NCBI GenBank assembly: GCA_965218425.1
Contig: OZ244621.1
Location: 1,152,001-1,216,000 of the forward strand
Origin: an uncultured Candidatus Binatia bacterium
GTDB lineage: Bacteria; Desulfobacterota; Binatia; UBA9968; CAXXLF01
DNA length: 64,000 bases
Direction: 5' to 3'
The notes under the pieces were generated by a model. It did no database searches, had not been told where the DNA came from, and worked only from the letters and a program-made list of their open reading frames with translations. Every line of letters starts with the position of its first letter. The stretch's first letter is position 1. Positions 32,620-55,197 of this stretch are shown here, in pieces. The translations under genes and the position numbers were made by a program.

Positions 32620-32621
32620 AT

Positions 32622-32750
32622 CGTCGGCGTAGCGGATCAACAATAATTGAGAATGGCCTGGAAAATCCGAGAAATTCCGGGGCGAAACGACCCGTAAATC
32701 GCCCATGCAAAGCCCCTTAAAGGGGTGTGCATCGACCGCGCTCGATGCCG
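32622..32750. repeat. Module D copy (IS-end-like), shared with 38064-38190
   Basis: GTCGGCGTAGCGGATC..AATAATTGAGAATGGCCTGGAAA.TCCGAGAAATTCCGGGGCG...CGCCCATGCAAAGCCCCT. Confidence 0.8.
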
Positions 32751-37932: not shown

Positions 37933-37992
37933 TTGTGGGGGTCAGACCTTGACACTTGACATGATTCATCTCGCCTTCTCAAAAGTTATTGA
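37933..37992. repeat. Module B copy 1 (Y1 element right end)
   Basis: TTGTGGGGGTCAGACCTTGACACTTGACATGATTCATCTCGCCTTCTCAAAAGTTATTGA. Confidence 0.85.
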
Positions 37993-38000
37993 ACAAAGAC

Positions 38001-38190
38001 AAAAGGGTCAAGCCCTGGCAGGGTGGCGGTTGCAGCGGCCGTCAAACCTGAAAGGAGAAGACCGTCGGCGTAGCGGATCGGAAATAATTGAGAATGGCCT
38101 GGAAAGTCCGAGAAATTCCGGGGCGGAACGACCCGGAAACCGCCCATGCAAAGCCCCTGAAAGGGCCGTGCATCGACCGTGCTTGACGCC
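38001..38190. repeat. Module A copy 5 (left part, 38001-38063) fused to module D (38064-38190)
   Basis: AAAAGGGTCAAGC...GGCGGTTGCAGCGGCCGTCAAACCTGAAAGGAGAAGACC joined to GTCGGCGTAGCGG. Confidence 0.75.
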
Positions 38191-38744: not shown

Positions 38745-38963
38745 ATGGTCGGAATGGAGGGACAGAAAGTGAGAAAAACGCTACCGCCACATCGTGTATC
38801 AGTGAGTTTCCCGCCGGAGTTATACGAGACTTTGGAAACGGTCGCGCGGCAGAAAAAAGTGTCGGTGGCGTGGGTCGTACGTGACGCGGCTGAGAGGTAT
38901 GTCGCTGAGCAATGGCCCCTGTTCGCAACAGATGACAGGGACCGATATGAACGATACAGATGA
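38745..38963 (+). CDS. Ribbon-helix-helix (CopG-like) regulator of the R-M operon
   Basis: RVSVSFPPELYETLETVARQKKVSVAWVVRDAAERY. Confidence 0.85.
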   Translation: MVGMEGQKVRKTLPPHRVSVSFPPELYETLETVARQKKVSVAWVVRDAAERYVAEQWPLFATDDRDRYERYR

Positions 38964-39762
38964 CGAATATTTGCGGATCGTACTTGATGCGATTCGAGTC
39001 TGTGCGCACTACAAGCCGAAATTCGGTCAGGGAGCGAAGGGCGGTGGTTTGACGTTGGAACAGTTCCGTGACCTCTATCAGGGAGACGCCTTCTATAGCT
39101 GGTTCGGGTTGGATAACCCGATGATGTACGCGGCACACAAGGCTGCCGGAGGCATGACGAGTGTGTACCGGCAGATCGGAATTGGGTGCGAGAGGTTGTT
39201 TCGCAGGGTGGTGAAAGATTCTTTCGAATTGTCAGAAGAAGATGTGACCTGGTCGTATCAGGTGACGTTGCCAAGTGGACGGAAGCGAACACTGTATCTA
39301 GACGGGCGGGTACCTCTTGAGAAGATCGGCAACAAAGACAAACGGGAGCGTTTCCGTGGGTGGATGAGGGATTCTGCGAAGATGCTGGATGTTGAACAGA
39401 AGGTATTCGAGAGCTTGACGGGCACGATTTTTGAGATCCGGCAGGGTTATAAGAGCAAGGACTCGAAACGGCAGAATGCCGATATCGCCAACGCTGCCAC
39501 GGCCTACACGAAAGGGTATTTTCCTTGCGCAGTGATCTTGTCGGGACAAATCGACAGCGATGTGCTTTTGCGGTACCGTGCCGAGAAATGGTCGGTTGTG
39601 ACAGGGATTGTCGGTGCAACAGACCCGCTGATATCGACATATGACTTCATGCGGAATGTCATTGGATATGACTTATCGGCGTTCTTTGAACGGAATAGTT
39701 CCACGCTTCGCGAGGAGATCGACACCATTCTGATAGCCCTTTTAGCCCCGGAGGCGACATGA
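38947..39762 (+). CDS. Putative Type II restriction endonuclease
   Basis: LDG...FEIRQGYKSKDSKRQN PD-(D/E)XK-like; lies between regulator and MTase. Confidence 0.7.
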   Translation: MNDTDDEYLRIVLDAIRVCAHYKPKFGQGAKGGGLTLEQFRDLYQGDAFYSWFGLDNPMMYAAHKAAGGMTSVYRQIGIGCERLFRRVVKDSFELSEEDVTWSYQVTLPSGRKRTLYLDGRVPLEKIGNKDKRERFRGWMRDSAKMLDVEQKVFESLTGTIFEIRQGYKSKDSKRQNADIANAATAYTKGYFPCAVILSGQIDSDVLLRYRAEKWSVVTGIVGATDPLISTYDFMRNVIGYDLSAFFERNSSTLREEIDTILIALLAPEAT

Positions 39763-41006
39763 GTGTAGTTGCCAGAGAAAAACTTCGCCAAAGAGCGGAC
39801 TATACGCATAAGTTCAACGCAAAGACGGGGCGGCATGGCTGGTTACGGCTGACACCTGCGTACTCGGTGAAGATTGTTGAAGAGCTTATGGACCAGTACG
39901 AAGAACCGTTGCGCGTGCTGGACCCGTTTTGTGGAACGGCGACGACAGCGCTGAGTGCGGCGTATCACGGGCACGAAGGCGTGACGACGGATATCAACCC
40001 GTTCCTGGTCTGGCTCGGCCAAGCGAAGATGGCGCAATACTCTGGTGCCTCGATAGTTTCGACACGTCGGGCATGTGCACGGGTGGTTGAGTCGGTGAAA
40101 CGGGGAGCGGTTGAGCCGGTGAAAGCGCCGCCTATTCATAACATTGAAAGATGGTGGTCGCCGGAAGCGCTGGAGTTTTTATGCACACTGAGGGCCGGTA
40201 TCGAAGCAGAAAGTAGGTACAATTCGCCGGAAAGGGCGTTTCTGCTGGTAGCGTTCTGTAGAACTCTGATCGAACTTTCGAACGCGGCTTTCAATCACCA
40301 ATCCTTGTCTTTTAAAGATGACGGGCAATTGCATCTCCAGCTCGATATCGACATGAGGCATGTGTTTAGCGAAGACGTGCAGTTCGTGTTGGAAGGTGCG
40401 GGGGAGAATCCGGAAGGAACGGGAAATGTAGTTTTCGGTGATTCCAGGAAGCTGCCGGGGGTAGTAGACGGCTCCTTCGATTTGGTGATTACGTCTCCGC
40501 CATATGTAAACCGGATGTCGTACATCCGTGAGCTGCGGCCGTACATGTATTGGCTCGGATTTCTGAATAACGGTCGGGATGCTGGCGAGCTTGACTGGAC
40601 GGCAATCGGTGGCACATGGGGGGTAGCAACAAGCAGACTGATTGATATGGAACGTCCAGGGGAGCCGTTTAAGCACCCGCTGCTCGATGAGGCATTGAAC
40701 GGGATAGCGCATCACGACAACAAGAGCGGGAAGATACTGGCAAGTTACGTGGCGAAGTATTTCGATGACATGTGGGAGCACTTTAATTCTCTAATCCCCG
40801 TGCTGAGCGAGGGCAGTGAGGTGCATTACATCGTGGGGAATTCCACGTTCTACGGTGTGCTCCTGTCGGTCGAGAGGCTATACGCGGCGATGCTTGAACG
40901 CTTGGGGTTTAAAGGGGTCGAGTGCCGCGCGATACGTAAGCGGAATTCAAAGAAAGAGTTGTTTGAGTTCGACGTTTCGGCGCGATGGATCGGGCGGAAG
41001 CCATGA
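39759..41006 (+). CDS. Amino-DNA methyltransferase (N4-C type, alpha motif order)
   Basis: Motif I VLDPFCGTAT before motif IV ITSPPY; ATGA overlap with REase. Confidence 0.88.
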   Translation: MSVVAREKLRQRADYTHKFNAKTGRHGWLRLTPAYSVKIVEELMDQYEEPLRVLDPFCGTATTALSAAYHGHEGVTTDINPFLVWLGQAKMAQYSGASIVSTRRACARVVESVKRGAVEPVKAPPIHNIERWWSPEALEFLCTLRAGIEAESRYNSPERAFLLVAFCRTLIELSNAAFNHQSLSFKDDGQLHLQLDIDMRHVFSEDVQFVLEGAGENPEGTGNVVFGDSRKLPGVVDGSFDLVITSPPYVNRMSYIRELRPYMYWLGFLNNGRDAGELDWTAIGGTWGVATSRLIDMERPGEPFKHPLLDEALNGIAHHDNKSGKILASYVAKYFDDMWEHFNSLIPVLSEGSEVHYIVGNSTFYGVLLSVERLYAAMLERLGFKGVECRAIRKRNSKKELFEFDVSARWIGRKP

Positions 41007-41081: not shown

Positions 41082-41588
41082 ATGAATAGGGAAGCGAGCA
41101 ACGAAAAGAGAGGAAGCGCAACGGCTCAGCCGTACGGTAGGCAGGCCGCGTTGCTTACGCTCGGGATCGCTCCAGTGATTTTTTCCAGTGAGCGAGTGCG
41201 GATTGGGCGCCTCGATCCGGAAGAACACGGGCTCATCAGGGATCTTCGTCTCGAACATCGGGGAACACATGCATTTCGCTTCGATGCCAGGGACATGAGG
41301 ATCGCGAATATCGGTCTCCGGCCGGATGTCGCGCCAATGGGGGAGATTGAAGAGGTTGCGGTCGGGAAGCACTTGTTGCTGCTGGCGGTGGCTATCGAAC
41401 ACCAGCTCTGGCACTGGCTGTCAGGCAGTCGGAAAATACTGCATCGCTTCCACCCGTTGATCTGTCTTGGCAACCGGGACCGGCTGTTGACGAAGGCGTT
41501 ACAGGAAGTCGGCATACAGTCGCCGGATACGCGACTTGATGTTGTCGCCAAATGGTCATTCGGTTTGCGTTGTGGGGTCAGACCTTGA
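41082..41588 (+). pseudogene. Truncated prokaryotic Argonaute N-domain (long-B / RsAgo-like)
   Basis: Colinear resemblance, recalled by eye, to the RsAgo N-terminus; cut at module B (41570). Confidence 0.55.
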
Positions 41589-41766
41589 CATTTGACATGA
41601 TTCATCTCGCCTTCTCAAAAGTTATTGAGAGAGCGCTAAAGCTCTCCCGCCACCGTCGCCTCCCAGGTTGCACTGTCCCGACACCACGGGGCGGCGGCTG
41701 CTGCAATATGCGTCAAGACGCCGTCGCATGACGTGGAGCGGCTCGGCCATGTCGTCTTTTGAAACC
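41570..41766. repeat. Module B copy 2
   Basis: Near-identical to 54681-54878; minus strand ends ATG TCA AAT GTC AAG GTC TGA CCCC (MSNVKV*). Confidence 0.88.
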
Positions 41767-42022
41767 GGCGTCAGGCACGCCTTATTGCTACTCCGGGTTC
41801 CCTTCCCTTTCGGATTCCGGCCTGTATTGCGCCAATTCTTTTGTGGAACGTCCTGTCCATTTGGACGCGGTCCACCAAGGCATGGATGCGGTTCTTTCCC
41901 GTCAATTGCATTTACCTGGGCGTATCGCTTGTGAGAGCATGGGGCCTTCTCCTTTCAGGTTTGATGGCCGTTACAACCACCACACTACTGGAGCTTGACC
42001 CCTTTTTCATGTTACCTGACCC
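41767..42022 (-). mobile_element. Module A copy 6 (near-complete)
   Basis: Ends GGGTCAGGTAAC / GGCGTCAGGCAC; encodes KNRIHALVDRVQMDRTFHKRIGAIQAGIRKGREPG. Confidence 0.8.
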
Positions 42023-42437: not shown

Positions 42438-42515
42438 GTATTTAATTCCCTTTCAATGTAGTCGAGAGGGTCGAATGCATCGTTTTAGCTCCGGCGGATT
42501 GATGTGGCAGGCGGC

Positions 42516-43769
42516 ATGAGTATTGGTAGAAACACGCAAACCGAGTGCAGACCGAGGGACGCTGTCTATCTGGACTATGCCGCAACGACGCCTGTCGACA
42601 CGCAGGTCATTGCGGTGATGATAAGGTATCTGGGGTTAGAGGGGATCTTCGGTAACGCTGCGTCGCGGTCACACCGCTTTGGACGCGAAGCCGAAGAGGC
42701 AGTGGAGATGGCACGAGAGCAAGTAGCCGAACTCATCAATGCTGATCCATCTGAGATTGTTTGGACATCGGGGGCTACTGAGTCCGTCAATTTGGCGATC
42801 AAGGGCGTAGCGCATGGACATGCCGACCAGGGCAAACATCTTGTCACTTCGAGTCTGGAGCACCATGCTGTTCTGGATTCATGCGATCAATTGGCCCGCG
42901 AAGGATATGAAATCACTTATGTTGACCCTGACCGGGACGGCCTGATCTCCCCAGAGCATGTGGAACAGGCCCTGAGAGACGACACCATTCTTGTCTCCCT
43001 GATGCATGTGAACAATGAAGTCGGGACCATCACCGACATCAAAGCGATAAGCGAAATAACCCGTGCCCGCGGGATCGCATTCCATGTGGACGCCGCACAA
43101 GGCGCGGCGCGTCTATCCCTCGACTTGCGCTCGATTCACGCGGACCTTGTTTCCCTTAGCGGACACAAGATGTACGGGCCAAAAGGTATCGGAGCGTTGT
43201 ACGTGCGTCACCGACCCCGCGTCCGGATCGAACCTCAGATACATGGCGGAGGTCAGGAACAGGGTATCCGCTCGGGGACGCTTGCGACACATCAAGTGGT
43301 CGGCATGGGCAAGGCCGCACAATTGACGTGTGAACGCCGAAAGCAAGATGTCGAAGCTGTCGCCGTGCTCGATCACCGCTTGCTGGAACGTCTTGCAGAT
43401 ATTGAGCACACCTTTATAAACGGCAACGAAACGCATCGTGTCTCAGGAATTGCAAACGTTGGCTTCGCATGCGTCGAGAGTGAGTCCCTCATGATGTCGT
43501 TGAAGGATGTTGCCATCTCATCCGGGTCGGCTTGCACCTCGTCCCACGTTGAGTCGTCCCACGTCTTGCGATCGCTAGGTTTGCCCGACGACCTTGCGAG
43601 TTGTTCAGTCCGCTTCAGCCTCGGACGATTCACGACCGAGCAGGAAGTCGACTTTGCTGCAGAGCGTGTGAGGGAATCCGTAAATGCGCTACGCCAATTG
43701 TCTCCCCAATGGAGATCGCTCCACCGAAACATTCGTAAAACTAAACCAAATCGCGTTCGTACTGATTAG
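42516..43769 (+). CDS. dndA: Cysteine desulfurase (DndA/IscS)
   Basis: [26 protein letters not shown]; immediately upstream of dndC. Confidence 0.88.
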
Positions 43770-43775
43770 TATGAC

Positions 43776-44969
43776 ATGAACGAGCACATCCAATTTAGAA
43801 ACATCGCAAGCGGCGACCATGGTAACATCTTCCATGTTGTCAAGCGTCTTGACGTCGCCATGGACGCCATTCGAAGAGAATACCTGCGAAAGCACGTCGA
43901 TCCGTGGGTGCTGGCCTATTCGGGCGGAAAGGACTCGACCCTGCTTCTTCAACTAACGTGGGAGGTGTTGGCATCGCTCCCTGTCCGTGATCGACGGCGT
44001 AAGATCTATGTCGTGGGCAACGACACGCTTGTCGAGTCGCCGTTGGTGATCCAGCATCTCAGAACCACTATGGCGACGATCAAGGATGCTGCTGCTGCGG
44101 ACGGACTGCCAATCGAGACGCAGATCACGAGGCCGCACATCGACCAGACTTTCTGGGTAAACGTGATTGGGCGCGGTTACATTCCCCCGACGCGGAACTT
44201 TCGGTGGTGTACCGATCGGATGAAAATCCTTCCGACTACCCAGCTCCTTGACGGACTCGTTCGATCACACAAGCGCGTTGTGCTACTGGTGGGAACGCGA
44301 AAAAGCGAGTCCGAGAATCGGCGCCGCAACATGACGAAGCATGGCGTTTCTGCAACCAAGATGAATCCTCACAGTTCCGTGGAACGCTGTCGAATGTTCG
44401 CGCCGCTGGCCGAATTCGAAGACCAGGACGTTTGGCTAATCCTGATGCAGCGAAAGCCACCGTGGGGCGGCTCGCATCGAGATCTAATCACGCTGTATCG
44501 TAATGCTGGAGGTGGAGAGTGCCCGTTGGTGCTGTCCAAGGCCGATGCCCCGTCATGCGGAACGACCTCGCCCAGGTTCGGTTGCTGGACATGTACGGTC
44601 GTAAAGAAAGATCGGAGCTTGCGAGGCTTGATTGATTCCGGTCACGAACACGCAGAAGTCTTCGCACGTCTCTTCGACTTTCGTGAGTGGCTGGTCCAAC
44701 TGCGTGAAGACAACGCAAATCGCCAGCGAGTGCGGAGGGACGGAAACTCCAAATCTCGTGCAGATGGAACCCTCGTGATGGGACCCTTCACGCTTGATGT
44801 TCGCGAACGTATCCTGCGCCGACTAAAGGTGCTCGAAGACGATACTAGGCAGCAACTCATTTCCGAATCTGAGCTTGATGTTATCAAAGACATCTGGCGT
44901 TGCGATCAGGTTCGAGAAGAGTGTCGCACTGCGTTACGCAACACGTTCGCCGACGGAGCCTCAGTTTGA
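43776..44969 (+). CDS. dndC: DNA phosphorothioation sulfurtransferase DndC (short form)
   Basis: AYSGGKDS, FWVNVIGRGY..P...FRWCTDRMKI, GTRKSES, GECP, RFGCWTC. Confidence 0.93.
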   Translation: MNEHIQFRNIASGDHGNIFHVVKRLDVAMDAIRREYLRKHVDPWVLAYSGGKDSTLLLQLTWEVLASLPVRDRRRKIYVVGNDTLVESPLVIQHLRTTMATIKDAAAADGLPIETQITRPHIDQTFWVNVIGRGYIPPTRNFRWCTDRMKILPTTQLLDGLVRSHKRVVLLVGTRKSESENRRRNMTKHGVSATKMNPHSSVERCRMFAPLAEFEDQDVWLILMQRKPPWGGSHRDLITLYRNAGGGECPLVLSKADAPSCGTTSPRFGCWTCTVVKKDRSLRGLIDSGHEHAEVFARLFDFREWLVQLREDNANRQRVRRDGNSKSRADGTLVMGPFTLDVRERILRRLKVLEDDTRQQLISESELDVIKDIWRCDQVREECRTALRNTFADGASV

Positions 44970-46756
44970 CAACTCAGCGCCAGACGGTCATTGAGGCGGA
45001 GGCGATGTTGTTTTCGGACCTTTTCCCCCAGGGCCGATTCGCCGTCCCGTGGCACCAGCGCTACTACGATTGGAAGCCGAGCGATGTCCGAGCACTTCTC
45101 TACGATATCGATGAAGCGATCAAGGAAAAGCGCGAGTGTTACTTTCTGGGTGCGGTGATGCTGGTTGAAGTCGAACCTAGAAAATGGGAGATCAACGACG
45201 GCCAACAACGAATGGTAACAATATCGCTGATCTGTGCCGCACTTTGCCGACGATTCGCTCGGGAAGAAAGGGGTTCGCAACGTGAAGGGCTCGCGCTGTG
45301 CATGCTGTTCGATCTGAACACTAATAGCGTCTCGACTTCAGACGACGTGGAACGCTACACTCCCCGGATTTCCCCACCGCAGAACGACGCGGCGCGGTAT
45401 CACCAGTTGATCCGTGGCAACACGATTGGAACCAACGGCAAGCTCACCGCCGCATGGGCAGAGATTGAAAAATTCTTCACTCCGATGAGTCAGGAAAAGT
45501 CGAAGGAGTATTTCGACTTTCTTTACAAAAAGTTGGAAATTACCTGCTTGCAGGTTCCGTCAAACATAGATTCGAACGCGGTGTACGAGACGCTTAACTA
45601 TAGAGGCAAGAAACTCGACGATTTGGACCTGATCCGTAATCATCTGTATTCGCACTTCAACGTGACCGGCGAATCCGAGAGAAGGCAATCGATACATGTG
45701 AATCTTGAGAGGATCCGCACAACGATTGCCAGCACCACAAAGGCATCCGAATACTTGCGTTGTCACCTGCAATGCCGGTTCGGCTTCCTTAGCAAGGACA
45801 ACTTCTACCGCGACGTACGTTCTGCCATTAAAACACGGAGGAATAATGAGCGCGGGCCGACGGGTTCCCAGGCCGACTACGTCTTCCACCTAACGAAACA
45901 AATCTCTGCTCCTGAGTCTCTGCAACTCTTCCAGACGATGACGGCAAAAGGCCCAGAACCGGAATTTATCAGGGCGTTCGAAAAGGACTCTGGGACAACA
46001 AATTCACCGAGGAATCTAGAAGTTTTTTTTCGGGAGTTGGGTGCATATAAGGTCACTCAGCCCCTAATTTTCGCCATGTTGACCAGGTACATACGTGAAT
46101 CGGACGGCGGAACAAAGAGGCAGATTGCAAGGTCCGTCAATAAAAACCTGAGTCGCTTGGCGACATTCGTCCTCAGAACGGCATTTGTTGCACCTAAGTT
46201 TGAGCCTTCGCATTTCGAAACAAAGTTTTCCAACTATGCCAAACACATCGCAACCGCCAACGTCCTTCCTAATGACAAATTTGCTGATTTTCTAAAGGAA
46301 TGCGATGCTTCAGAACACGGAGTGCTAGATGACTCCAAGTTCCAAAACGCTATGGTCGAGGCGACGATGAAGGACAAAAAAAAGATCAAGCGGTTTCTGC
46401 TCGGGATTAATCGCAACATACAACACGGTGCACGGCTATTGAACGAGCAATCCTGTAACGTCGAGCACATACTGCCAGAATCTTCGCAACACTGGAGTGC
46501 TTGGACCAGCTTCAAGGATGTCGATGGGAGCGAGTGGGTTAATAGAATCGGGAATCTGACCCTGGTGGGACCGGCGGACAATCAGCCTGGACCGAAGTAT
46601 AATGGTGATTTTGCGAAGAAGCGCGAGAGCTATCGAGGCAGTGAAGTCGCGCTTACCCGTGAGCTGAGCAAACACGTTGATTGGACCCCTACCACCGTCG
46701 AAGCGAGACAGCGGGAGTTGGCGAAACGAGCCGCGCGTGTTTGGACGTTCGTTTGA
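44966..46756 (+). CDS. DUF262 + DUF1524 protein (GmrSD/SspE-like)
   Basis: P..QR.Y.W, FLG, DGQQR, YETLNYRG, VEHILP, IGNLTL; TTGA overlap with dndC stop. Confidence 0.9.
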   Translation: MTTQRQTVIEAEAMLFSDLFPQGRFAVPWHQRYYDWKPSDVRALLYDIDEAIKEKRECYFLGAVMLVEVEPRKWEINDGQQRMVTISLICAALCRRFAREERGSQREGLALCMLFDLNTNSVSTSDDVERYTPRISPPQNDAARYHQLIRGNTIGTNGKLTAAWAEIEKFFTPMSQEKSKEYFDFLYKKLEITCLQVPSNIDSNAVYETLNYRGKKLDDLDLIRNHLYSHFNVTGESERRQSIHVNLERIRTTIASTTKASEYLRCHLQCRFGFLSKDNFYRDVRSAIKTRRNNERGPTGSQADYVFHLTKQISAPESLQLFQTMTAKGPEPEFIRAFEKDSGTTNSPRNLEVFFRELGAYKVTQPLIFAMLTRYIRESDGGTKRQIARSVNKNLSRLATFVLRTAFVAPKFEPSHFETKFSNYAKHIATANVLPNDKFADFLKECDASEHGVLDDSKFQNAMVEATMKDKKKIKRFLLGINRNIQHGARLLNEQSCNVEHILPESSQHWSAWTSFKDVDGSEWVNRIGNLTLVGPADNQPGPKYNGDFAKKRESYRGSEVALTRELSKHVDWTPTTVEARQRELAKRAARVWTFV

Positions 46757-46901
46757 TGCTTGATACACCACAACTTCGGCGTCTCGCCGAGGACCATCTC
46801 CACGTTCCCACGACGCTTCATAACTAAACAATGAGAAAGTATCAGGTCCTTGTCTTTGTTCAAATTCACGATTGAAATGAGACGTTGGGGAGTATGTTGT
46901 C

Positions 46902-47111
46902 ATGAAAATATCAAAAGATGAAATTGAACTCATATCAAAGATCGCTGCCGATCACGAAATCAAAGGTGATGTGATCGTACAACTTCTTGAGCTTGAAGAG
47001 GAATTTCCAGATGTTCACGCGTGGGGAGCACGTGCAAATCTTAAACGTAAAATTGCTCAAACACTTGAGCAAGCAGCAAATCAGGCGAACCCGACCGATC
47101 CTAATCGATGA
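46902..47111 (+). CDS. Small Dnd-associated helical protein (resembles a detached DndC C-terminal tail)
   Basis: ELISKIAADH...QLLELEEEF...RANLKRKI; ATGA overlap with dndD. Confidence 0.65.
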   Translation: MKISKDEIELISKIAADHEIKGDVIVQLLELEEEFPDVHAWGARANLKRKIAQTLEQAANQANPTDPNR

Positions 47112-49144
47112 TCTTCAAACGCATACGCCTTGAGAACCTGTTTGCCTATAAGGGTATTCAGGAAATTGATCTTACGGGGTGCGGTAAGGGAAGGAACATT
47201 ATTCTTATTTCTGGCCGCAATGGTACAGGTAAAACAAGCTTTATCAATGCTGTCAAACTTCTATTCCTTGGCGCTAACGATCAGCGTCTGCGACGTGTTG
47301 GCTTCCCGCCTACGACTCTTGCCACAGGCCAATTTGTTCGGGGTGTTCCGGGCGTGTGGTCCGGTTTGTTCAACACTCAAGCGCGACGCGACGATTCTGA
47401 ACGAGCGTCAATATCAATCATTTGGGAAGAAGAAGATGGAGTTGAGTTTGAGGCCCGACGAAGCTGGCGTTTGAATGGTCCTAGCTACGAAGAGAACCTC
47501 GATCTATACAAAAACGGAGAAGCGTCAAATCCAGACGACGTCTCCTTGCAGCTTGCAGAAAAACTGCCGCACGACTTTGTGCCGTTCTTCTTTTTTGACG
47601 GCGAACAAATTCGTGAACTTGCCGAAGCGGAGGAGGATATCACTGCAAATGAGATCGAACGCATATTGAACCTCTCCTTTGTGGGCGAAATAGAACAGGG
47701 CGTGTCGGAATTCGTACGGCAGCGTCGCCGTGAGGCGCTACCCGAAGAAACGCAGGTTCGAATACGACGTGCCGAGGGAGAACTTGCCACGAAACAGGCA
47801 GAAAAAGCGGTGGCGGAAAGACGGCTGATGAATTTTCAAGAGGCCATCCAGAAGACCGAGTCCCGCAAACGTGAACTGACGGTCGAGAGGGACGAATTAC
47901 GTACCGGTGTTTCCGACGCGGACCGACTGCTTCTCGAACAACGCCTGGAGACGTTGGAATCGCAAAGATCGGATTTGGCCCGTAAGATCAGCGAGACTCT
48001 GCCGCCAGAGGCGCCGTTCCTCGCAAACCTTAAACTAACACTCCGCGCATACGGGGATGTAGAAACCGTCGTATCGGCACGAGCCGCTCAGGAACTTGGG
48101 AGGCTCGACACTCTACGTCGAGAACTGCCCCACCGGCTGCTGGATCAGGAGCCACACCCTGAAACGCCGCTCGACCCATCCCAGATTGAACACTTACGCG
48201 GGAAGCTCCTATCGCTCATAGAAGAATATACTACTCTGGAGACAGCAGATCAGTTGCCATCCTATCTCCGAACACTCGATCTTGCTAGCGCCCAGAGTTT
48301 GCGCGACCGTTACCTAATTTGGGTTCGCGAGGGCGTAAGACACAGACGTTCCATCGCCACAGAGTTACAACAGATACGCAAGCTTACTGTAGAGGCGGAA
48401 CAAACGACGGAAGAACTAGCCCGGGTATCTGTCGCGTCGAAGGGCCACCTTCAACGCTTTCGCGAGATATCCAAGGAGCTTGACGAACTCGATAATGAAT
48501 TAGCCGCTAAGCACGAGGATGTCGGAAAGGTTGAGGCCGAAATCTCTCAATGCGCGCGCACCATATCCGAAACCCGTAAGCAAGTCGCCGCGCTTGAAGA
48601 AGAACACGAACAAGCCAGAATGACTGGCCAGACTGTCCAATACGCAAGACATGTCGAGGCAGTTCTGCACGAATATAGAGCACGCCAAAGAGAGTTGAGG
48701 CGCACCTCTGTCGAAAAACGCATTAACGAGAAACTGGGTATTCTTCTAGCCGAACACGGACAAATCGGGCGCGTAAACCTCAGCAACCGGTTCATAATGA
48801 CGTATTATGACAAACATGATCAAAAAATTGGGCGCGTAAGTATTTCTGCCGGCATGAAGCAGCTCGTCGCAACAGCATTACTGTGGGCACTAAAGGACGA
48901 ATCCGGTAAGAAGATACCTCTGGTCATCGATACACCACTTGCTCGCATCGACCGCCGAAATCGCGCGCGTCTTTTGGACTCCTATTACCCTAATGCGGGG
49001 GAGCAGGTCATTGTGCTCCCCACAGACAGCGAGATTGATGACAGCCAGTTACTGCATCTCGCTCCACATATTGCCAAAAGGTACCGGATAGAGAATGTCG
49101 ACGGCGAAAACGCCAAGATTGTTCTGGATCAAACCAATGTCTAA
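47108..49144 (+). CDS. dndD: DNA sulfur modification SMC-like ATPase DndD
   Basis: GRNGTGKT, FFFFDGEQI, long coiled coil, ISAGMKQ, VIDTPLARID, YYP....QVIVLPTDSEI. Confidence 0.92.
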   Translation: MIFKRIRLENLFAYKGIQEIDLTGCGKGRNIILISGRNGTGKTSFINAVKLLFLGANDQRLRRVGFPPTTLATGQFVRGVPGVWSGLFNTQARRDDSERASISIIWEEEDGVEFEARRSWRLNGPSYEENLDLYKNGEASNPDDVSLQLAEKLPHDFVPFFFFDGEQIRELAEAEEDITANEIERILNLSFVGEIEQGVSEFVRQRRREALPEETQVRIRRAEGELATKQAEKAVAERRLMNFQEAIQKTESRKRELTVERDELRTGVSDADRLLLEQRLETLESQRSDLARKISETLPPEAPFLANLKLTLRAYGDVETVVSARAAQELGRLDTLRRELPHRLLDQEPHPETPLDPSQIEHLRGKLLSLIEEYTTLETADQLPSYLRTLDLASAQSLRDRYLIWVREGVRHRRSIATELQQIRKLTVEAEQTTEELARVSVASKGHLQRFREISKELDELDNELAAKHEDVGKVEAEISQCARTISETRKQVAALEEEHEQARMTGQTVQYARHVEAVLHEYRARQRELRRTSVEKRINEKLGILLAEHGQIGRVNLSNRFIMTYYDKHDQKIGRVSISAGMKQLVATALLWALKDESGKKIPLVIDTPLARIDRRNRARLLDSYYPNAGEQVIVLPTDSEIDDSQLLHLAPHIAKRYRIENVDGENAKIVLDQTNV

Positions 49145-49147
49145 GGA

Positions 49148-50647
49148 ATGACCATGGACAAATTTTATTTCGGACGAGATGAACGAGCTTTCATGTTCCG
49201 CGTGATAGAAAAAGGAATGCTGCAAAAGCCAGGCCAAGCTCCACAATGGTGGGTTGTACGCCTCGCCTTGGCAAAATCTTTACAATTCGAAGAGCCTCCC
49301 AACGATGATAAGTTTGCGCCGCCACCGCATGTCCAAGGCGGAAGCGAGTTGCACCTTGATCAGATTACCGGAAAAGATAAGGGCGGATTGGAAGATTATA
49401 CACGCGCGTTGAAGCTTTTGCTGTCGGCACGTCATGGTGCCGACCTTATAAGCAATGATGCACTTTTTGAAGAGACACTACACAGACATATACGCAGAGG
49501 TCTTCATGAAATAAAAATTTCGTGGCGTGAAAATTCTGATTTCTTTGATTATTTGTATCAAGATTTGTTCTTTGAGAAGTTTACAAACGAATCCGGTGAG
49601 ACAAGCCTCGGCGATATATCAAATGAAGACCTGACTTTAGCACTGCATAAGATAGGGGTACGCGTTGAGGTTGAACAAAAACTTGATGGCCCAAGATTGT
49701 CGCGCTTCAGACTTGTTTTATCCGGTGTCGACGATTACGACAAACTACGAAGAAACATCGACGATCTCAACTTTATTCTTGGTCTGAGTGCTAACAGCAT
49801 ATCGTTTGAATTGGGTGGGGGCGAACGCAGGATTGTCTTGGACATCCCGCGACCAATGTCCATCTGGCACTACATAAAATGGGCTGAGGCTCAGAAGGCT
49901 CTTCAGGAAACGTCCTACCGCTTGCCTGTCTGTTCGGCTACCGACGTTCTGGGCGTTCCCATTTCTTTTGATTTGGCCTCCGCGCCCCATCTCTTGATAG
50001 GCGGCACCACTGGTAGCGGGAAAAGCATCTGTGTCCACGCGATCATATTGTCGCTGATTGTGTGCGTTGAGCGCCCGGAGTTGGTTCTCGTTGACCCGAA
50101 GGCTGTCGAGTTGACGGCGTATACGAACTACGGAAATCTGAGAGGAGGCCGTGTCATTACAGATATGGCTGATGCGAGGGCTGTTTTTCAAGAACTTGTG
50201 AAGACGATGGACCAAAGGCAAAAGGACTATATGTCTATCGGCGTGCGCGACATCGACGAAGCTCGGAAAAAGGGTAGCGATGACCGCAGCATTGTGGTGG
50301 TCGTCGACGAACTGGCAGACCTTGTCCTAGGAAACCCAGAGGTTGTCGGTCCACTTGTCCGTCTTGCCCAAAAGGCGCGCGCTTTTGGCATTCATTTAGT
50401 GTTGGCCACACAGCGCCCAGAGGCAGGAACATTTCCCGGCCTGTTACGGTCCAACATACCAAGCCGTATCGCGCTGACTGTCCAGAAAAATTCCGAGTCA
50501 CGGATCATCCTGGATGAGGGAGGCGCGGAGAACCTGCTCATGCGGGGCGACATGCTTGTACGCATGGTCGGTCAGAAGACAATCCGCGCGCATGGCGTCA
50601 GCGTGTCGCAGTCGGATATCGAAAGGGTTCTTGCCGAACATGGCTAA
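49148..50647 (+). CDS. DndE-like domain fused to FtsK/SpoIIIE ATPase
   Basis: N-terminal WVVRLALAKSL..GSEL..QITG..HIRRGL (DndE-like); C-terminal PHLLIGGTTGSGKS, VDELADL, ARAFGIHLVLATQRP; no TM or gamma domain. Confidence 0.8.
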   Translation: MTMDKFYFGRDERAFMFRVIEKGMLQKPGQAPQWWVVRLALAKSLQFEEPPNDDKFAPPPHVQGGSELHLDQITGKDKGGLEDYTRALKLLLSARHGADLISNDALFEETLHRHIRRGLHEIKISWRENSDFFDYLYQDLFFEKFTNESGETSLGDISNEDLTLALHKIGVRVEVEQKLDGPRLSRFRLVLSGVDDYDKLRRNIDDLNFILGLSANSISFELGGGERRIVLDIPRPMSIWHYIKWAEAQKALQETSYRLPVCSATDVLGVPISFDLASAPHLLIGGTTGSGKSICVHAIILSLIVCVERPELVLVDPKAVELTAYTNYGNLRGGRVITDMADARAVFQELVKTMDQRQKDYMSIGVRDIDEARKKGSDDRSIVVVVDELADLVLGNPEVVGPLVRLAQKARAFGIHLVLATQRPEAGTFPGLLRSNIPSRIALTVQKNSESRIILDEGGAENLLMRGDMLVRMVGQKTIRAHGVSVSQSDIERVLAEHG

Positions 50648-51815
50648 CGAAGAGCGCAATATCCACATCCGCGACTTCCGTCTGGTTAAGCTCACACTCG
50701 TAGATGTTGGCCCATTTCGGGAGTATTATGAAATAGACTTTACTGGCGCACCGCTATCCACAGGTGCCGAGAAGGGCAGTGAAACCGCGTGCGAACCAGC
50801 AAATTTTTTCTTGTTACTTAGCAAGAATGGTTTCGGCAAAACCACGGCCCTTGAGGTGATCACGCTACTTTTTGATCTGCTCGGCAAATCTGAAGCTTCC
50901 CGTTTTGGCCATTACGACCTCGATGATGGCACGGGTAAGATACAGGCAGATTTTCGTGCTAACTGGTCTATCGACGACTCGCGCTCACCCGTCCTTCTTT
51001 CGATCTGGGCGGGAAGCGAAGGACCCGTTTATGTTTGGACCAAAAGTGATATCGAGTCTGTTGCGAATGCCTCTGAGTGGGCCAAGGTAGGCTTTGTACG
51101 TTCGCGATCATCAGACCGGATAGAGCTTGGGCCAGGAACAAACGAACTTGGCAAGATCCTCGCAACGGCTATCCGGCACGCGGTCGGCACACCGCCGCCA
51201 GCGCTGTTCGGAGAGGGTTTTGATCTGCCGACAGTGCTCTTCTTTCCAGCCGACCGCGCCGTAAGGCGCCCGCCACTTGCGGGCCGTGCAGTGTCGAGGC
51301 CGGAGCACTGGGGATATCGACCGTCCTTTCGGTTTGAAGTCGACGGGACTGAGTGGGCGAACTCCCTTGACAATTTGTTGGTTTGGCTCTCGTGGCTGGC
51401 GGACGACAGAGACCGTGTCTTGCGAGAATACGTTGAGAAAACCGTATTTATGGATGGCAGAAAAGGATTACTGGAAGTAGACCGTGAGCGACTATCCGCC
51501 AATGTCAAGACACCCGACGGGGTACATCCGCTCTACAACCTCAGCCACGGTGAAAGGCAGGTGTTGCAACTTCTTGTACGCACACCGGTCCACATGACGA
51601 ACAGCACGATTTTGCTGATCGATGAAGTCGAAATGCACCTGCATCCAAAGTGGCGGGTCACACTATTGGAAACGCTCAAAGTGCTTGTCAAAGATTTTGA
51701 GGGCCTTTCAGTAATTGTGACAACCCATGAGCGCGAACTCATACAGGTGTTTCAACATGAAGTGCCCGAAGAGGGCTTAGTGAAAGGTGGATTCTTGATC
51801 GAGCAGGACTTGTAA
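50640..51815 (+). CDS. ABC-type AAA_21/AAA_15 ATPase (AriA/OLD-like)
   Basis: KNGFGKT, LSHGERQ, LLIDEVEMHLHP, TTH; overlaps upstream stop. Confidence 0.88.
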   Translation: MANEERNIHIRDFRLVKLTLVDVGPFREYYEIDFTGAPLSTGAEKGSETACEPANFFLLLSKNGFGKTTALEVITLLFDLLGKSEASRFGHYDLDDGTGKIQADFRANWSIDDSRSPVLLSIWAGSEGPVYVWTKSDIESVANASEWAKVGFVRSRSSDRIELGPGTNELGKILATAIRHAVGTPPPALFGEGFDLPTVLFFPADRAVRRPPLAGRAVSRPEHWGYRPSFRFEVDGTEWANSLDNLLVWLSWLADDRDRVLREYVEKTVFMDGRKGLLEVDRERLSANVKTPDGVHPLYNLSHGERQVLQLLVRTPVHMTNSTILLIDEVEMHLHPKWRVTLLETLKVLVKDFEGLSVIVTTHERELIQVFQHEVPEEGLVKGGFLIEQDL

Positions 51816-52690
51816 TGCCGAACTTAAGAGAGCTGGGGGACAGCAATGCTGTTGATAATAAGTATGTCGACCGGATCGTGTTTTATGTAGAAGGTGAGGA
51901 TGATAAAAGTCTTCTGACTGTCTACTTGTTGAAGCATTACGTCTCTAAAGTTGAAGTCAAAACGCCATCAGCATTGGGAAGCGGTTACCTGGGGGTAATT
52001 CAACGGGTTAGCCAAGAGCGAGGTATGAACGGAAAAATCTTCGGCATAGTCGATGGTGAAGCGCTTTTGCCCTTGGGGCATGTTTCGATATACAAAGAGA
52101 TGTTTGGAGGATGGAATTGGATCACCCTTCCTAAATTTGACGGCATTTACTTTATTCCGTGTTGGGAGATAGAAAACCTTCTCTATATTAGAGATATTTT
52201 GCCACAGACGCTTATTGCCCTTCAGCCTGTATCGAAGCTCTCGCGTTTGACTGAAAGATCTGTCGAAAACATCATCCTGACGGAGGCATTCCGACTTTCA
52301 GAGTTATCTTCGTTGAATTTAGCACTTTTAGCAGAGTCGTATGATACAATAAGAGCAGAAACAAAATCGAACATTGAGAAAAGACATGATTTACTTACGG
52401 AAATTGGGACGACGATCGCCTCGTTAGATAAGGCTCACTTAGTGAAAAATGGGTATGATAATTGGAGGCAATTTTTTCGCGAGCTCCTTCGAGGGAGCCG
52501 AACACGAGACAAAATATACGATGAATTTATTAGTCGTGTTGACGGGAAGGCATTATCTATAAGATTGAGTAAAAAATTAAATGTTCAACCCGACATTCGT
52601 TCAACACTCGCGTACAATTTTTCCAATAATAAGAAAACAATGAAAATTATTGACGCGCTATTGGAAACGGTCAATCGGCGCGTTCCGTGA
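51815..52690 (+). CDS. DUF4435/TOPRIM-like protein (AriB-like)
   Basis: FYVEGEDD, GIVDGE, WEIENLL; TAATG coupling to ATPase. Confidence 0.72.
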   Translation: MPNLRELGDSNAVDNKYVDRIVFYVEGEDDKSLLTVYLLKHYVSKVEVKTPSALGSGYLGVIQRVSQERGMNGKIFGIVDGEALLPLGHVSIYKEMFGGWNWITLPKFDGIYFIPCWEIENLLYIRDILPQTLIALQPVSKLSRLTERSVENIILTEAFRLSELSSLNLALLAESYDTIRAETKSNIEKRHDLLTEIGTTIASLDKAHLVKNGYDNWRQFFRELLRGSRTRDKIYDEFISRVDGKALSIRLSKKLNVQPDIRSTLAYNFSNNKKTMKIIDALLETVNRRVP

Positions 52691-52902
52691 ATTGTGGCTA
52701 ATCATCTGAAATTGAAGTATGCTTCAATAATCGTTACGCAAGCCGTTGCTCGTATTAACCTAAATTTTGCAGTTGATGCTGGTGCACAGCTATCGTTTGG
52801 AGGGTTTTTCAACCAGTTGGTGCAGTCTGAAGGGGCGTGAGCCATCGCTGTCGACCCGGTTGTCGACCTCCGGGATATTCTTTAACGCTTCGATCAGGAA
52901 TT

Positions 52903-53014
52903 AGTGTCGGGCACACTTTTTTGCTATTCTGGGTTTCCTTCCCTTTCGGATTCCAGCTTGAATTGTACCAATTCTCTCTTGCAATGTCCTGTCCATTTGG
53001 ACGCGGTGTTCTAA
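52903..53014 (-). repeat. Module A copy 7 (right part)
   Basis: Core TTCCCTTTCGGATTCC; same break GGACGCGGT|GTTCTAA as copy 8. Confidence 0.8.
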
Positions 53015-53232
53015 TTGGCCCTCTCCGACAGAAAGAACATTACCGTGAGGCGGCAATTAGCTACCCCAAGCAAACGGGCCGGCCGTCCCGCGAGACTGTG
53101 CCGTTATTCCAATCACTTGACACTGGGGTAAGTGCAGAATCGTGGCAACACGTAACTGCAATCTGGACGGGCCGGAGATCCGAAAGCTAGTTTCACGACG
53201 TGGAGGCTAGGCTGCCTCACAGTGTTTAGGCT

Positions 53233-54324
53233 TTATCGATTAGCATTCCGAAGTTCGCGATGAATGATCCGGTGACAGTTTGCGCATAGGCACATCAGGT
53301 CTTGCAGTTGCGTATTGTGTCCGGGCGGCATGTCGGCTAACGGAAGTTTGTGATGCACATCGATGCACGCATCACCGATATCGATCCCATAGACTTCTGC
53401 CGGATCTAGTCCGCAGCGTTCGCATAGCAATCGGCCGTGTTCACTTATGAACGCCGCCTTTTTTGCCGGTGCAAGCCCCCATCCCCGCTCGCGTTGAAGG
53501 TGGATTACATACTTCGGGTGCCCTTCGATCCAATCGCGTTCGTCCGGGTTTGGCGGTACTTCAACGGGTTGGACCGGCCCGTCCTTCGGGACGATCCGGT
53601 ATCCGGCGGCGGTGATCGCTTTGAAGCAGGGGGTTCCGATGCCACCCACAAAGTGATACGGCAAAACCTCGAAGCCGAGAGCTTCGGACACCGCTAGACC
53701 GAACACGGCCTTAGGTGCAAGGCGCGACCCGTCCTCGGTAATAACGTCATAGTCAGTGGATTCACCGAACGAATGCTCGCCTGAACCGAAAAGAAGCCGT
53801 TGCACCGCACGCCAGATGTGTTCGGCAGATACCGGCTGCAACTCTGCAGCCCGTAGCCTTTTGCGTCGGTTTGAGGCTGCGCCAGTCTCGCCCCAGCCTG
53901 CAATCCGGGCGATCCGCTCGCCGGGGGGATTTCCGGTAAATGCGAAACGAAGCCTTTTTGTGGAATTTCCACGGTTGTTTCGGTTGTTCGGATCACGACC
54001 GACCGCAGCCATTCTGTTCGAGAATCTGGTGAACAATTCAGACGGCGAAACCTGAGTGTCTTCGGGAAGGAGTATTTTTCTTTCCTCCATTGGCAAATTT
54101 TGGACACGACTGCTGTCTACCCACACTCCGACCAACGTCAGGTCCGATTGATCGATTCGCTCGAGAAGAATACGCAGTGCCTCACCATATTTAGTGTTTT
54201 GTGCGTTGGTGGTGTCTTTGGTTCCGCCGCGCGAATGCAAAATTAGTTTTCCTTCCTGTACTTCGAAATGAGCATCCATTGGAGTACCGGAATCATTGTG
54301 GAATTTGTATAAGGTTACCGACAC
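53233..54324 (-). CDS. McrA-like HNH endonuclease with N-terminal accessory domains
   Basis: EG...H..RER; CERC...IDVHH...CLCANCHRIIH; middle YDV...APKAVFGLA...FVGG (ScoMcrA head-like). Confidence 0.85.
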   Translation of the reverse strand: MSVTLYKFHNDSGTPMDAHFEVQEGKLILHSRGGTKDTTNAQNTKYGEALRILLERIDQSDLTLVGVWVDSSRVQNLPMEERKILLPEDTQVSPSELFTRFSNRMAAVGRDPNNRNNRGNSTKRLRFAFTGNPPGERIARIAGWGETGAASNRRKRLRAAELQPVSAEHIWRAVQRLLFGSGEHSFGESTDYDVITEDGSRLAPKAVFGLAVSEALGFEVLPYHFVGGIGTPCFKAITAAGYRIVPKDGPVQPVEVPPNPDERDWIEGHPKYVIHLQRERGWGLAPAKKAAFISEHGRLLCERCGLDPAEVYGIDIGDACIDVHHKLPLADMPPGHNTQLQDLMCLCANCHRIIHRELRNANR

Positions 54325-54480: not shown

Positions 54481-54680
54481 AAATGCAGAGGTGGCGTGGG
54501 GGCATGCGGCGCAGCATTCTTTGTACTGACGAGCAGCGGTTTTTTGCCGTTCTTACGGCAGTTCTTGCTGATACGCATAGGTGGAATACCAAGGGTGCTT
54601 CAAGGGGTGGTAGTTTAGCAAATTCCGCCTCGGATCGCTTGTGGTTTTTTTCGTCCTCTCGAGCGAAATTGGAGCCGATG

Positions 54681-54990
54681 TTGTGGGGGTCAGACCTTGA
54701 CATTTGACATGATTCATCTCGCCTTCTCAAAAGTTATTGAGGGAGCACTAAAGCTCTCCCGCCACTGTCGCCCCCCAGGTTGCACTGTCCCGACACCACG
54801 AGGTGGCGGCTGCTGCAATATGCGTCAAGACCCCGTCGCATGACGTGGAGCGGCTCGGCCATGTCGTCTTTTGAAACCGGAGTCATGCCCGCCTTTTTGC
54901 TATTCTAGGTTTCCTTCCCTTTCGGATTCCCGCTTGTATCGTGCCGATTCTCTCTTGCAATGTCCTGTCCATTTGGACGCGGTGTTCTAA
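54681..54990. repeat. Module B copy 3 plus module A copy 8; direct repeat of 41570-41871
   Basis: About 300 bp colinear match. Confidence 0.88.
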
Positions 54991-55035
54991 CCAGCGCAAC
55001 CCACGGCTCATCACTCCGTCATCACGGCTTGAATA

Positions 55036-55197
55036 TCGGCGTAGGCGGACGGAAATAATTGGATATAGGCCGGAAACCGGCCGGATTTTCCGGGGCATTT
55101 AGGGCTCGAAAAAGGGCCCTGCAAGGGCCGTTAAATCGGGGCGGGCGGCGCCTCATGAATCCCCCCTCATTGGAACGCGACCACCGTGAGTAGAAGG
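55036..55197. repeat. Module D copy
   Basis: TCGGCGTAGGCGGACGGAAATAATTG start like 32622 and 38064; remainder matches 20550-20675. Confidence 0.75.

Follow-up and report, generated by a model that had tools for sequence, protein, structure and literature searches.

Phosphorothioation systems related to the operon

According to a 2025 review, DNA phosphorothioation systems have three restriction branches, dndFGH/sspFGH, sspE, and pbeABCD (PMC12707154); DndI, published in 2024, is absent from that text. DndI is a DUF262/DUF1524 sulfur-sensing nickase and a partner of IscS-DndBCDE (PMC11662687). Nucleases are embedded in Dnd neighbourhoods in 80% of taxa, no restriction partner is known for about half of the Dnd gene sets, and the field has yet to establish which nucleases recognise the sulfur mark (PMC10853773). 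Here, we describe an eight-gene Dnd-type operon at ~42.5–52.7 kb of a 64,000-nucleotide stretch of DNA, hereafter called the window, from an uncultured Candidatus Binatia bacterium (contig OZ244621.1, positions 1,152,001 to 1,216,000). The initial annotation of this DNA had listed DndFGH, PbeABCD, and SspE as the known restriction partners; these three stand, and DndI and the embedded nucleases have to be added.

Several components of the operon are already published. Fusions of DndE to a HerA/FtsK ATPase beside a DndD-related ATPase are found in Rakesh et al. 2024 (PMC10853773), as are the small protein, duplicated DndD/DndE pairs, and plentiful embedded nucleases. A review describes the fusion protein, DndEi, as indispensable for modification in Riemerella (PMC6435447). 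DUF262/DUF1524 nucleases have been described as sulfur-sensing (DndI, SspE) or stand-alone (HEC-06) defences, and HEC-06 is a validated stand-alone system that is also found embedded within other systems (bioRxiv 10.1101/2024.01.29.577857). Split ABC/Toprim nucleases are represented by PARIS and by MAD3-MAD4, a 2:2 complex with ATPase and DNA-cleaving activity from the methylation-linked MADS system (PMC13662399). Two arrangements may be new. One is a dedicated ABC-Toprim pair that co-diverges with DndD and DndE::FtsK; no description of such a pair linked to Dnd was found in the full-text literature searched, with Krishnan 2020, Zheng 2016, and the supplement of PMC10853773 outside its coverage. 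The other is a trio of DndA, DndC, and a DUF262/DUF1524 nuclease without DndD and DndE, of which the literature searched (Krishnan 2020 again outside coverage) contained no published description.

Gene content and layout of the operon

The locus is probably an intact Dnd-type DNA phosphorothioation and defence operon that was joined from two modules and carries two effectors. Module A (42504–46756) comprises DndA, a short DndC, and a DUF262/DUF1524 nuclease, and module B (46902–52690) comprises the small protein Sp, DndD, DndE::FtsK, an ABC ATPase, and an AriB-like Toprim protein. Reading of the sequence shows eight open reading frames (ORFs) without interruption, all on the plus strand, with a gene stump at the junction of the modules:

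42504..43769 (alternative ATG 42516), plus strand: DndA/IscS-type cysteine desulfurase; PF00266 1.5e-83, PADLOC SspA/DndA ~1e-158 (DndA 3e-158); module A, gene 1
43776..44969, plus strand: DndC, short form, 397 aa, PP-loop/Fe-S sulfurtransferase; TIGR03183 346 bits, cut-off 290; module A
44966..46756, plus strand: GmrSD-type DUF262 nucleoside triphosphatase (NTPase) and DUF1524 HNH nuclease, 596 aa, DndI/HEC-06 family; GmrSD_N 1.5e-23, GmrSD_C 6e-22; module A
46756..46827, plus strand: SNF2 helicase gene stump, 23 codons; 24-residue profile E 7.4e-9; junction of modules A and B
46902..47111, plus strand: Sp (Sp-DndD small protein), 69 aa, predicted helical; PF20306 6.9e-11, 42.5 bits, cut-off 27.2; module B, gene 1
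47108..49144, plus strand: DndD ABC ATPase; TIGR03185 293 bits, cut-off 246; module B
49148..50647, plus strand: DndE::FtsK fusion (DndEi type), 499 aa; PF08870 DndE 25.1 bits, cut-off 25; FtsK_SpoIIIE 3e-36; module B
50640..51815, plus strand: compact ABC ATPase, 391 aa; AAA_21 1e-15, AAA_15 also matched; module B
51815..52690, plus strand: AriB-like Toprim (DUF4435) protein, 291 aa; DUF4435 26.3 bits, cut-off 27; PADLOC AriB 5.8e-7; module B

The eight co-oriented genes, their identities, and the four overlaps at 44966, 47108, 50640, and 51815 had been described in the initial annotation and are confirmed by the ORFs and by Pfam, PADLOC, and NCBIfam, the overlaps of start and stop codons being real by sequence reading or ORF coordinates. 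The nuclease gene begins with a TTG that overlaps the dndC stop codon (an alternative ATG lies at 45005), and the stop codon of Sp overlaps the dndD start. Catalytic motifs are intact across all eight genes, including the Walker, signature, PP-loop, DGQQR, and HNH-type motifs. The operon contains exactly one each of DndA, DndC, DndD, and DndE; the curated cut-offs are exceeded by DndC, DndD, Sp-DndD, and FtsK and just reached by DndE. Module A has a G+C content of 0.54, and module B one of 0.50.

The host genome consists of one contig of 4.46 Mb and is 97% complete. Searches of this genome gave no match to DndB (PF14072) and none to DndFGH (TIGR03236/7/8), the latter a weak absence since these models were also silent in 14 control genomes. 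The only DndE in the whole genome is that of the operon (27.7 bits in the genome search). These searches support the earlier description of the locus as a non-canonical Dnd system that brings its own candidate effectors and lacks dndB and dndFGH, with the same reservation for DndFGH. No single PADLOC model set names the full eight-gene architecture.

Two described systems come close in overall composition. The DndEi systems (‘clade-3’ HerA/FtsK; Rakesh, Aravind & Krishnan 2024, citing Krishnan 2020; Zheng 2016) show the same succession of DndC, Sp, DndD-clade ABC ATPase, and DndE::FtsK. In the operon, as in 28 of 29 related loci, DndE::FtsK is however followed by an ABC-Toprim pair, and the DndA and DndC of the window come from another lineage. 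PbeABCD, which consists of a CxC ABC ATPase, DndE, a small protein, and an HKD-helicase nuclease, likewise groups a small protein with a DndD-like ATPase, a DndE cognate, and a nuclease in one module next to Dnd modification genes. In contrast to PbeABCD, the operon has no conserved CxC motif, no HKD or SF2 domain among its eight ORFs, and a DndE that is fused to FtsK.

Module A is a fixed unit in the class of the host

Relatives of module A were analysed in a sample of 401 genomes of the host's class. Nine of them, the host included, contain a full-length copy of the nuclease (44–60% identity). In the other eight genomes, the nuclease gene overlaps the end of a short dndC in every case, and dndA lies upstream in five. 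Scoring of all ORFs with profiles showed that the nuclease is absent from all 29 other DndE::FtsK loci. The initial annotation had counted the DUF262 nuclease as part of one defence type with the downstream genes; given its absence from those 29 loci and its constant place in the DndA-DndC trio (8/8), this assignment does not hold.

DndA of the window is 56–66% identical to DndA of the class trios vs. 37–42% to DndA of the DndE::FtsK loci, and DndC is 60–72% identical to DndC of the trio loci L101–L108 vs. 42–49% to DndC of the DndE::FtsK loci. DndA reaches 577.9 bits with the NCBIfam IscS-subfamily model (cut-off 548) and 418 bits, below the cut-off of 480, with the DndA model TIGR03235. DndC carries the SGGKDS motif and a Cys cluster, and its matches span positions 5–365 of 447 in TIGR03183 and 9–386 of 481 in the PADLOC DndC model (2.3e-113).

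Every trio locus has another partner set. Downstream of the trio lie either a SNF2 helicase and a ParB-N protein, together with HTH_ParB and MBL-fold genes (L101, L105, L106, and L108), or a small protein followed by DndB (L102, L103, L104, and L107). In L102 and L103 this small protein contains a GIY-YIG domain, whereas in L107 it has no Pfam match; in L104, where the check was by PADLOC only, it has no PADLOC match. Among five trio genomes searched, three of which are single contigs, none contains DndE and none contains DndD above the family cut-off, with sub-threshold DndD-like genes elsewhere in two. Full-length DndE::FtsK occurs only in the host genome among the 401 sampled genomes of the class and was not found in the eight trio genomes. 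The trio of DndA, DndC, and nuclease is a fixed unit in the host's class, normally accompanied by other DNA-handling partners. Its occurrence without DndD and DndE in complete genomes questions the indispensability of these two proteins.

In one of these loci (L103, genome G205), the DUF262/DUF1524 gene at 9097–10866 is split into two ORFs by one in-frame TAG and is likely a pseudogene.

Module B is inherited as a five-gene block

Relatives of module B were collected with DndE::FtsK as query. A scan of one genome per species gave three loci, and a metagenome scan with a four-sequence alignment gave 80, of which 26 have a full-length relative at 45–49% identity. Together with the window, the three genome loci and these 26 metagenome loci form a 30-locus set, in which all ORFs were scored with profiles built from the window and the first three loci. 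DndE::FtsK is followed directly by the ABC ATPase and DUF4435 genes in 28 of the 29 loci with downstream sequence, and the dndD-dndE::ftsK-AAA-DUF4435 synteny noted at first in the window is thereby found to recur. The exception, L019 (6025–10872), has DndC::Sp, DndD, and DndE::FtsK between housekeeping genes and no ABC-Toprim pair. Sp precedes DndD in all 26 loci in which the 5′ end of DndD is on the contig, the other four being cut. Comparison of distance matrices across the 23 complete loci gave correlations of r = 0.94–0.97 (Mantel p ≤ 0.001) between DndD, DndE::FtsK, the ABC ATPase, and DUF4435; mean identity is 0.55 for DndE::FtsK vs. 0.29 for DUF4435, the fastest-evolving gene of the module. 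In other Proteobacteria, module B is passed on as one block of five genes.

A second DndD is present in 21 of the 30 loci, in 13 with a stand-alone DndE2 and in eight adjacent to a long DndC. The 13 DndD2-DndE2 sets mostly lie beside DndA and a short DndC, directly upstream or convergently downstream of module B; an annotated example with two pairs is the Mesorhizobium amorphae plasmid pM0123d. A single DndD/DndE pair is found in four loci, namely the window, L001, L019, and L027, and in a DndE::FtsK tree, which has a midpoint root only, the single-pair loci are basal in both main clades. DndE::FtsK has more than 120 full-length clusters, annotated only as FtsK/SpoIIIE or DUF87.

Three plasmid loci show further variants. 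In pM0123d (L089), a ‘DNA phosphorothioation-associated DGQHR protein 1’, which is DndB-like, is encoded at 13601–14818, convergent to a nine-gene two-module Dnd cluster. Aureimonas pAU20f (L090) has DndC, Sp, DndD, and DndE::FtsK without the ABC-Toprim pair; here DndE::FtsK is followed by a gene for the TusA sulfur carrier, and a DGQHR protein is encoded upstream. In a plasmid of Rhizobium sp. RCAM05350 (L091), the two-module cluster appears broken into many short annotated ORFs, which points to decay or assembly errors.

Sp, the first gene product of the module, carries the RefSeq name ‘DNA modification system-associated small protein’. It is fused to the C-terminus of DndC in L001, L019, and L027, and two PADLOC DndC models hold an Sp-like stretch at positions 404–458. 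A profile search of 1.84 billion representatives gave 145 Sp matches, about 133 of them shorter than 150 aa, so the free form is the norm. Sp may act as an adaptor between DndC and DndD. The predicted Sp-DndD complex scored 0.53 vs. 0.08 for the best of three controls, with at least 82% of contacts agreeing between runs and a partner pLDDT (predicted local distance difference test) of at least 73.

In DndD, the Walker A, signature, and Walker B motifs are intact. Its top PADLOC match is PbeC (1.8e-100); a conserved CxC motif is absent, as the protein has two Cys only and neither is invariant in 19 sequences, and we therefore rejected its assignment as a PbeC-type CxC ATPase. In DndE::FtsK, the DndE domain (PF08870) occupies residues 29–123. 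The FtsK part is a genuine motor by its match to PDB 2IUU (8.6e-50), also matches PADLOC mad8 (4e-28), and has Walker A and Walker B motifs that are invariant in all four aligned sequences. The initial annotation had placed this motor in the restriction arm. Since the FtsK domain is part of DndEi, which is reportedly required for writing in Riemerella (PMC6435447), the motor is not evidence of a restriction arm.

A SNF2 gene stump marks the junction of the modules

Between the nuclease gene and Sp lies a 23-codon remnant of a SNF2 helicase gene that the initial annotation had overlooked. The stump overlaps the stop codon of the nuclease gene, and its 23 residues match the N-termini of the SNF2 genes of L101, L105, L106, and L108. 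A profile built from the 24 residues before the YQWEGV motif of these four genes gave a sole match in a six-frame search of the window (E 7.4e-9; next best 0.66; 2158 pieces), and tblastn showed 54% identity over 28 aa. The stop codon of the stump falls exactly where YQWEGV starts in the intact SNF2 genes. Remnants of ParB, MBL, GIY-YIG, or DndB genes were found nowhere in the window by tblastn (all E > 0.08). From the stump it follows that module B took over the place of the trio's former partner, SNF2 and whatever came after it. The stump also shows directly that the DNA-handling half of such systems is exchangeable as a cassette, which supports a modular view of backbone modification with a chemistry module plus a DNA-scanning module. 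The distinct defence type put forward at first is not a single unit in evolution but was recombined from two modules whose relatives differ.

A same-genus genome, in which conserved DNA resumes at ~56.7 kb, lacks the operon altogether. The operon is flanked by a direct repeat whose family is multi-copy in the related genomes G001 and G002:

41574..41871, no strand: 298-nt direct repeat, left copy; 92% identity to the right copy
54686..54983, no strand: 298-nt direct repeat, right copy; 92% identity to the left copy

A shorter copy of the same repeat family lies at 52901–53039, just 3′ of the operon. The closest homologs of DndE::FtsK (78%), the ABC ATPase (84%), and the nuclease (65%) share one longest-contig size, 718,746 bp. 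This shared size suggests that the same composite of modules A and B may persist in a second organism.

The DUF262/DUF1524 nuclease is related to DndI and HEC-06

The nuclease belongs to a large family (707 proteins at E ≤ 1e-20) and has a DGQQR motif together with an HNH motif of the VEHILP type. Among PADLOC families it matches HEC-06 best (4.5e-72), over the full length (positions 11–556 of 558). The PADLOC ‘Orf5’ models, which we tentatively take to be the Dnd-linked DUF262/DUF1524 gene from their placement between the Dnd and Pbe models, match at 2e-51, and SspE matches at 1.9e-14 in the N-terminal part only. The best match among solved structures is DndI (9JFL, 2.3e-10), with both domains covered.

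As in the IscS-DndBCDE-DndI system of Salmonella Cerro 87, a protein with DUF262, DUF1524 HNH, and DGQQR (596 aa here) is encoded among Dnd modification genes. Unlike there, similarity to DndI is low (E 2.3e-10), the sulfur-sensing Tyr aligns with a His in an uncertain alignment, and no DndB is present; moreover, DndI sits in a dndFGHI operon, whereas the window nuclease gene overlaps dndC and travels with it. With HEC-06, a GmrSD-like protein embedded in Hma systems, the nuclease shares the full-length match, DGQQR, the E-H HNH motif, and the position inside a multi-gene system, but HEC-06 is an occasional insert there, whereas the nuclease of the window lineage is a fixed DndC neighbour (8/8). 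SspABCD-SspE has the same gene order and logic, with cysteine desulfurase and PAPS-reductase-type enzyme followed by a DUF262-DUF1524 nuclease. In contrast, the SspD (2.9e-7) and SspE (1.9e-14) models score far below DndC (2.3e-113), and no SspB or SspC match was found among the eight ORFs; on these PADLOC model scores we rejected an identity as an Ssp system.

The constant DndC-nuclease adjacency is reminiscent of the SspD-SspE and DndC-DndB pairs. DndC-DndB combines a PAPS-reductase-type enzyme with a ParB-superfamily protein, and SspA, SspD, and SspE have been equated with DndA, DndC, and DndB (Rakesh 2024, PMC10853773). The absence of the nuclease from the 29 other DndE::FtsK loci had raised the idea of a window-specific insert that split dndC; we rejected it, as the nuclease is the DndC neighbour in 8/8 trio genomes and Sp is mostly free-standing.

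The ABC ATPase and the Toprim protein form a putative split nuclease

The ABC ATPase was modelled at a pLDDT of 91 and is closest in fold to PtuA and to retron ABC ATPases. By sequence, AriA matches at 5e-7, with PADLOC AriA covering only model positions 230–303 of 304. The ABC family is narrow: 206 proteins reach E ≤ 1e-30 among 5.8 billion. In 72,556 plasmids, the ABC ATPase has two matches at E ≤ 1e-5, both beside the only two genes of full-length DndE::FtsK type there. Among homologs at least 60% identical to the window proteins, the longest-contig size of 6 of the 11 DndE::FtsK clusters recurs among the 13 ABC clusters.

The DUF4435 protein was modelled from a 23-sequence alignment (pLDDT 79), in which E26, D30, D80, E118, E120, and K245 are invariant. 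Top Foldseek matches of this model are AriB in the PARIS complexes 8UX9_A (1.5e-4) and 8V46_D, followed by OLD C-terminal regions; the PADLOC AriB match covers model positions 2–108 of 236. As judged from these predicted folds, the ABC and DUF4435 proteins constitute a split OLD-type ATPase-Toprim pair. Other split OLD-type pairs are MAD3-MAD4 of MADS and HEC-01.

PARIS (AriA/AriB) works by release through anti-restriction proteins and by tRNA cleavage, and PARIS-like genes reportedly sit inside restriction or BREX loci. The pair of the operon resembles PARIS in that an ABC ATPase gene overlaps a DUF4435/Toprim gene and the Toprim fold is nearest to AriB. It differs in that the AriA and AriB models are matched only in part, the ABC fold is nearest to PtuA, and the narrow subfamily is tied to DndE::FtsK. 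With MADS it shares an ABC-Toprim pair and an FtsK-like ATPase (mad8 match 4e-28) in a modification-linked operon. MADS, however, has eight mad genes including a methyltransferase; here, only a partial mad3 match (3.8e-12) and mad8 are seen, with no mad4 and no methylase among the eight ORFs.

Possible mode of action and competing explanations

If the operon works as the gene content suggests, DndA would take sulfur from cysteine and pass it to the Fe-S/PP-loop enzyme DndC, Sp would couple DndC to DndD, and DndD with DndE::FtsK would scan DNA, translocate it, and choose the sites where sulfur replaces a backbone oxygen. The two nucleases would then act on unmarked DNA or on the infected cell, the DUF262-DUF1524 NTPase/HNH nickase possibly in the manner of DndI or SspE, and the ABC-Toprim pair as a split OLD-type nuclease like MAD3-MAD4 or PARIS. 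Two clonable candidate nucleases are at hand in one 10-kb operon: a DndC-linked DndI/HEC-06-like nickase and an ABC-Toprim pair that spans at least 28 loci.

Several observations weigh against this interpretation. Production of the phosphorothioate is deduced from the genes. The DndC lineage of the window works without detectable DndD or DndE (0/5 genomes), so that its compatibility with Sp, DndD, and DndE::FtsK is assumed. DndC has no Sp-like tail, and no Sp match of DndC::Sp length (~440–470 aa) places Sp at the C-terminus, which makes the ‘DndC tail’ a minority form. The predicted Sp-DndD complex gives weak support: 116 of 157 solved complexes pass the mark, as do 2 of 215 mismatched pairs; at 0.60 or less, just 18 of the 157 solved complexes pass, together with both of those mismatches. 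The sulfur-sensing Tyr25 of DndI aligns with His30 of the nuclease (by HMMER, in an alignment that is uncertain at such identity), and PADLOC ranks the stand-alone HEC-06 above ‘Orf5’ and SspE. The ABC fold is nearest to PtuA and not AriA, DUF4435 reaches 26.3 bits and stays just below its Pfam cut-off of 27, and L019 shows that the ABC-Toprim pair is dispensable for the Dnd core. Furthermore, the loci of the set are akin, and the synteny counts therefore show inheritance as a unit rather than independent events.

In a competing explanation, the ABC-Toprim pair is an autonomous abortive-infection system of the PARIS type that rides with Dnd genes and neither reads nor needs the sulfur mark, with an AriA-like ABC protein holding the AriB-like Toprim until a phage anti-restriction protein frees it. 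The Toprim model that best matches AriB, the sequence matches of both AriA and AriB models, and the Dnd core without the pair in L019 agree with it. We consider it unlikely, because these model matches are partial and the pair occurs in translational coupling in 28 of 29 loci, shows co-divergence with both DndD and DndE::FtsK (r = 0.94–0.97), and belongs to a subfamily that in plasmids lies only beside DndE::FtsK (2/2), with no ordinary PARIS ATPases at E ≤ 1e-5. About equally improbable in our view is that module B is a reader and restriction machine comparable to PbeABCD and MADS, in which DndD and DndE::FtsK patrol and the ABC-Toprim pair cuts, and that the trio writes the mark without DndD or DndE. 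The second DndD in 21 of 30 loci (13 with stand-alone DndE, eight beside a long DndC) would make the DndD and DndE of module B redundant for writing there, the trio lacks DndE and above-cut-off DndD in 5/5 genomes searched (three single-contig), and DndD and the FtsK part find PbeC (1.8e-100) and mad8 (4e-28) in PADLOC. But DndEi is reported to be essential for modification in Riemerella (PMC6435447), DndD has no CxC motif as in PbeC, and L019 and Aureimonas pAU20f, with DndC-Sp-DndD-DndE::FtsK and no nuclease pair, look like pure writers; the trio loci, moreover, always have another partner (SNF2 with ParB, or DndB with GIY-YIG), and module B took exactly that place.

The composite could also be a recent recombination accident whose halves do not cooperate, leaving only a type IV-like GmrSD-type nuclease and the ABC-Toprim pair active. 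The truncated SNF2 stump at the junction, the repeat-flanked region missing from the same-genus genome, the occurrence of DndE::FtsK in just 1 of 123 genomes of the host's order, and HEC-06 relatives that defend alone would all fit such an event. Against it stand eight open genes with intact catalytic motifs, the presence of one each of DndA, DndC, DndD, and DndE, and the longest-contig size of 718,746 bp shared by the closest homologs, which suggests the composite in a second organism; we regard an accident as very improbable. The same low probability attaches to the version of the initial annotation, a single integrated defence type whose joint restriction arm consists of the DUF262 nuclease, the FtsK motor, and the ABC/Toprim pair. 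Co-orientation, mostly coupled genes, and the failure to find dndFGH in the host genome speak for it, but the parts have separate histories, with the nuclease in 0/29 other DndE::FtsK loci and DndE::FtsK not found in the eight trio genomes, and the FtsK domain is always fused to DndE, even in loci without the nuclease pair.

Beyond the preferred reading of a two-module phosphorothioation and defence operon, we tentatively raise a bolder one that we hold to be doubtful: the five-gene Sp-DndD-DndE::FtsK-ABC-Toprim block might be a self-contained, modification-reading restriction machine, and the DndA-DndC-DUF262/DUF1524 trio a DndC-based modification system without DndD and DndE. If this were true, the ABC-Toprim pair would add to DndFGH, SspE/DndI, and Pbe another, as yet unnamed, arm for the restriction of sulfur-marked DNA and be a sulfur counterpart of the MADS ATPase-nuclease modules. 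The trio would use SNF2 with ParB, DndB with GIY-YIG, or module B as exchangeable DNA-handling partners, which would contradict the published obligate core of DndD and DndE (PMC10853773).

Neighbourhood of the operon

The operon is part of a defence island. Just upstream, at 38881–41006, a type II restriction enzyme gene (PADLOC REase_II 2e-80) overlaps a type II methyltransferase gene (2e-26). A 175-aa ORF at 41061–41588 matches only the first 129 of 724 positions of the class II prokaryotic Argonaute model (2.9e-11) and may be a gene fragment. Just past the operon, between two repeat copies, the minus strand encodes at 53233–54324 a 363-aa protein with a C-terminal HNH and a weak match to type IV restriction enzymes.

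A scan of the window found no tRNA genes. Scans for other signals gave 16 promoter-like sites vs. 8.8 expected, which are low-confidence consensus matches, and terminator-like sites at chance level (13 vs. 13.0 expected).

Mosaic repeats of 70–300 nt bound each cassette of the island, at 28470–28750, 32487–32750, 37930–38190, 41570–42020, 52900–53040, and 54680–55080. This repeat family has dozens of copies in related genomes, with 72 matches in G001 for one 20-kb query. Two ORFs at 30387–32384 and 36111–37610 have matches to a TbpB-like C-terminal beta-barrel, and their flanks (30030–30255 and 35584–35810) are 90–93% identical, which suggests a duplicated cassette.

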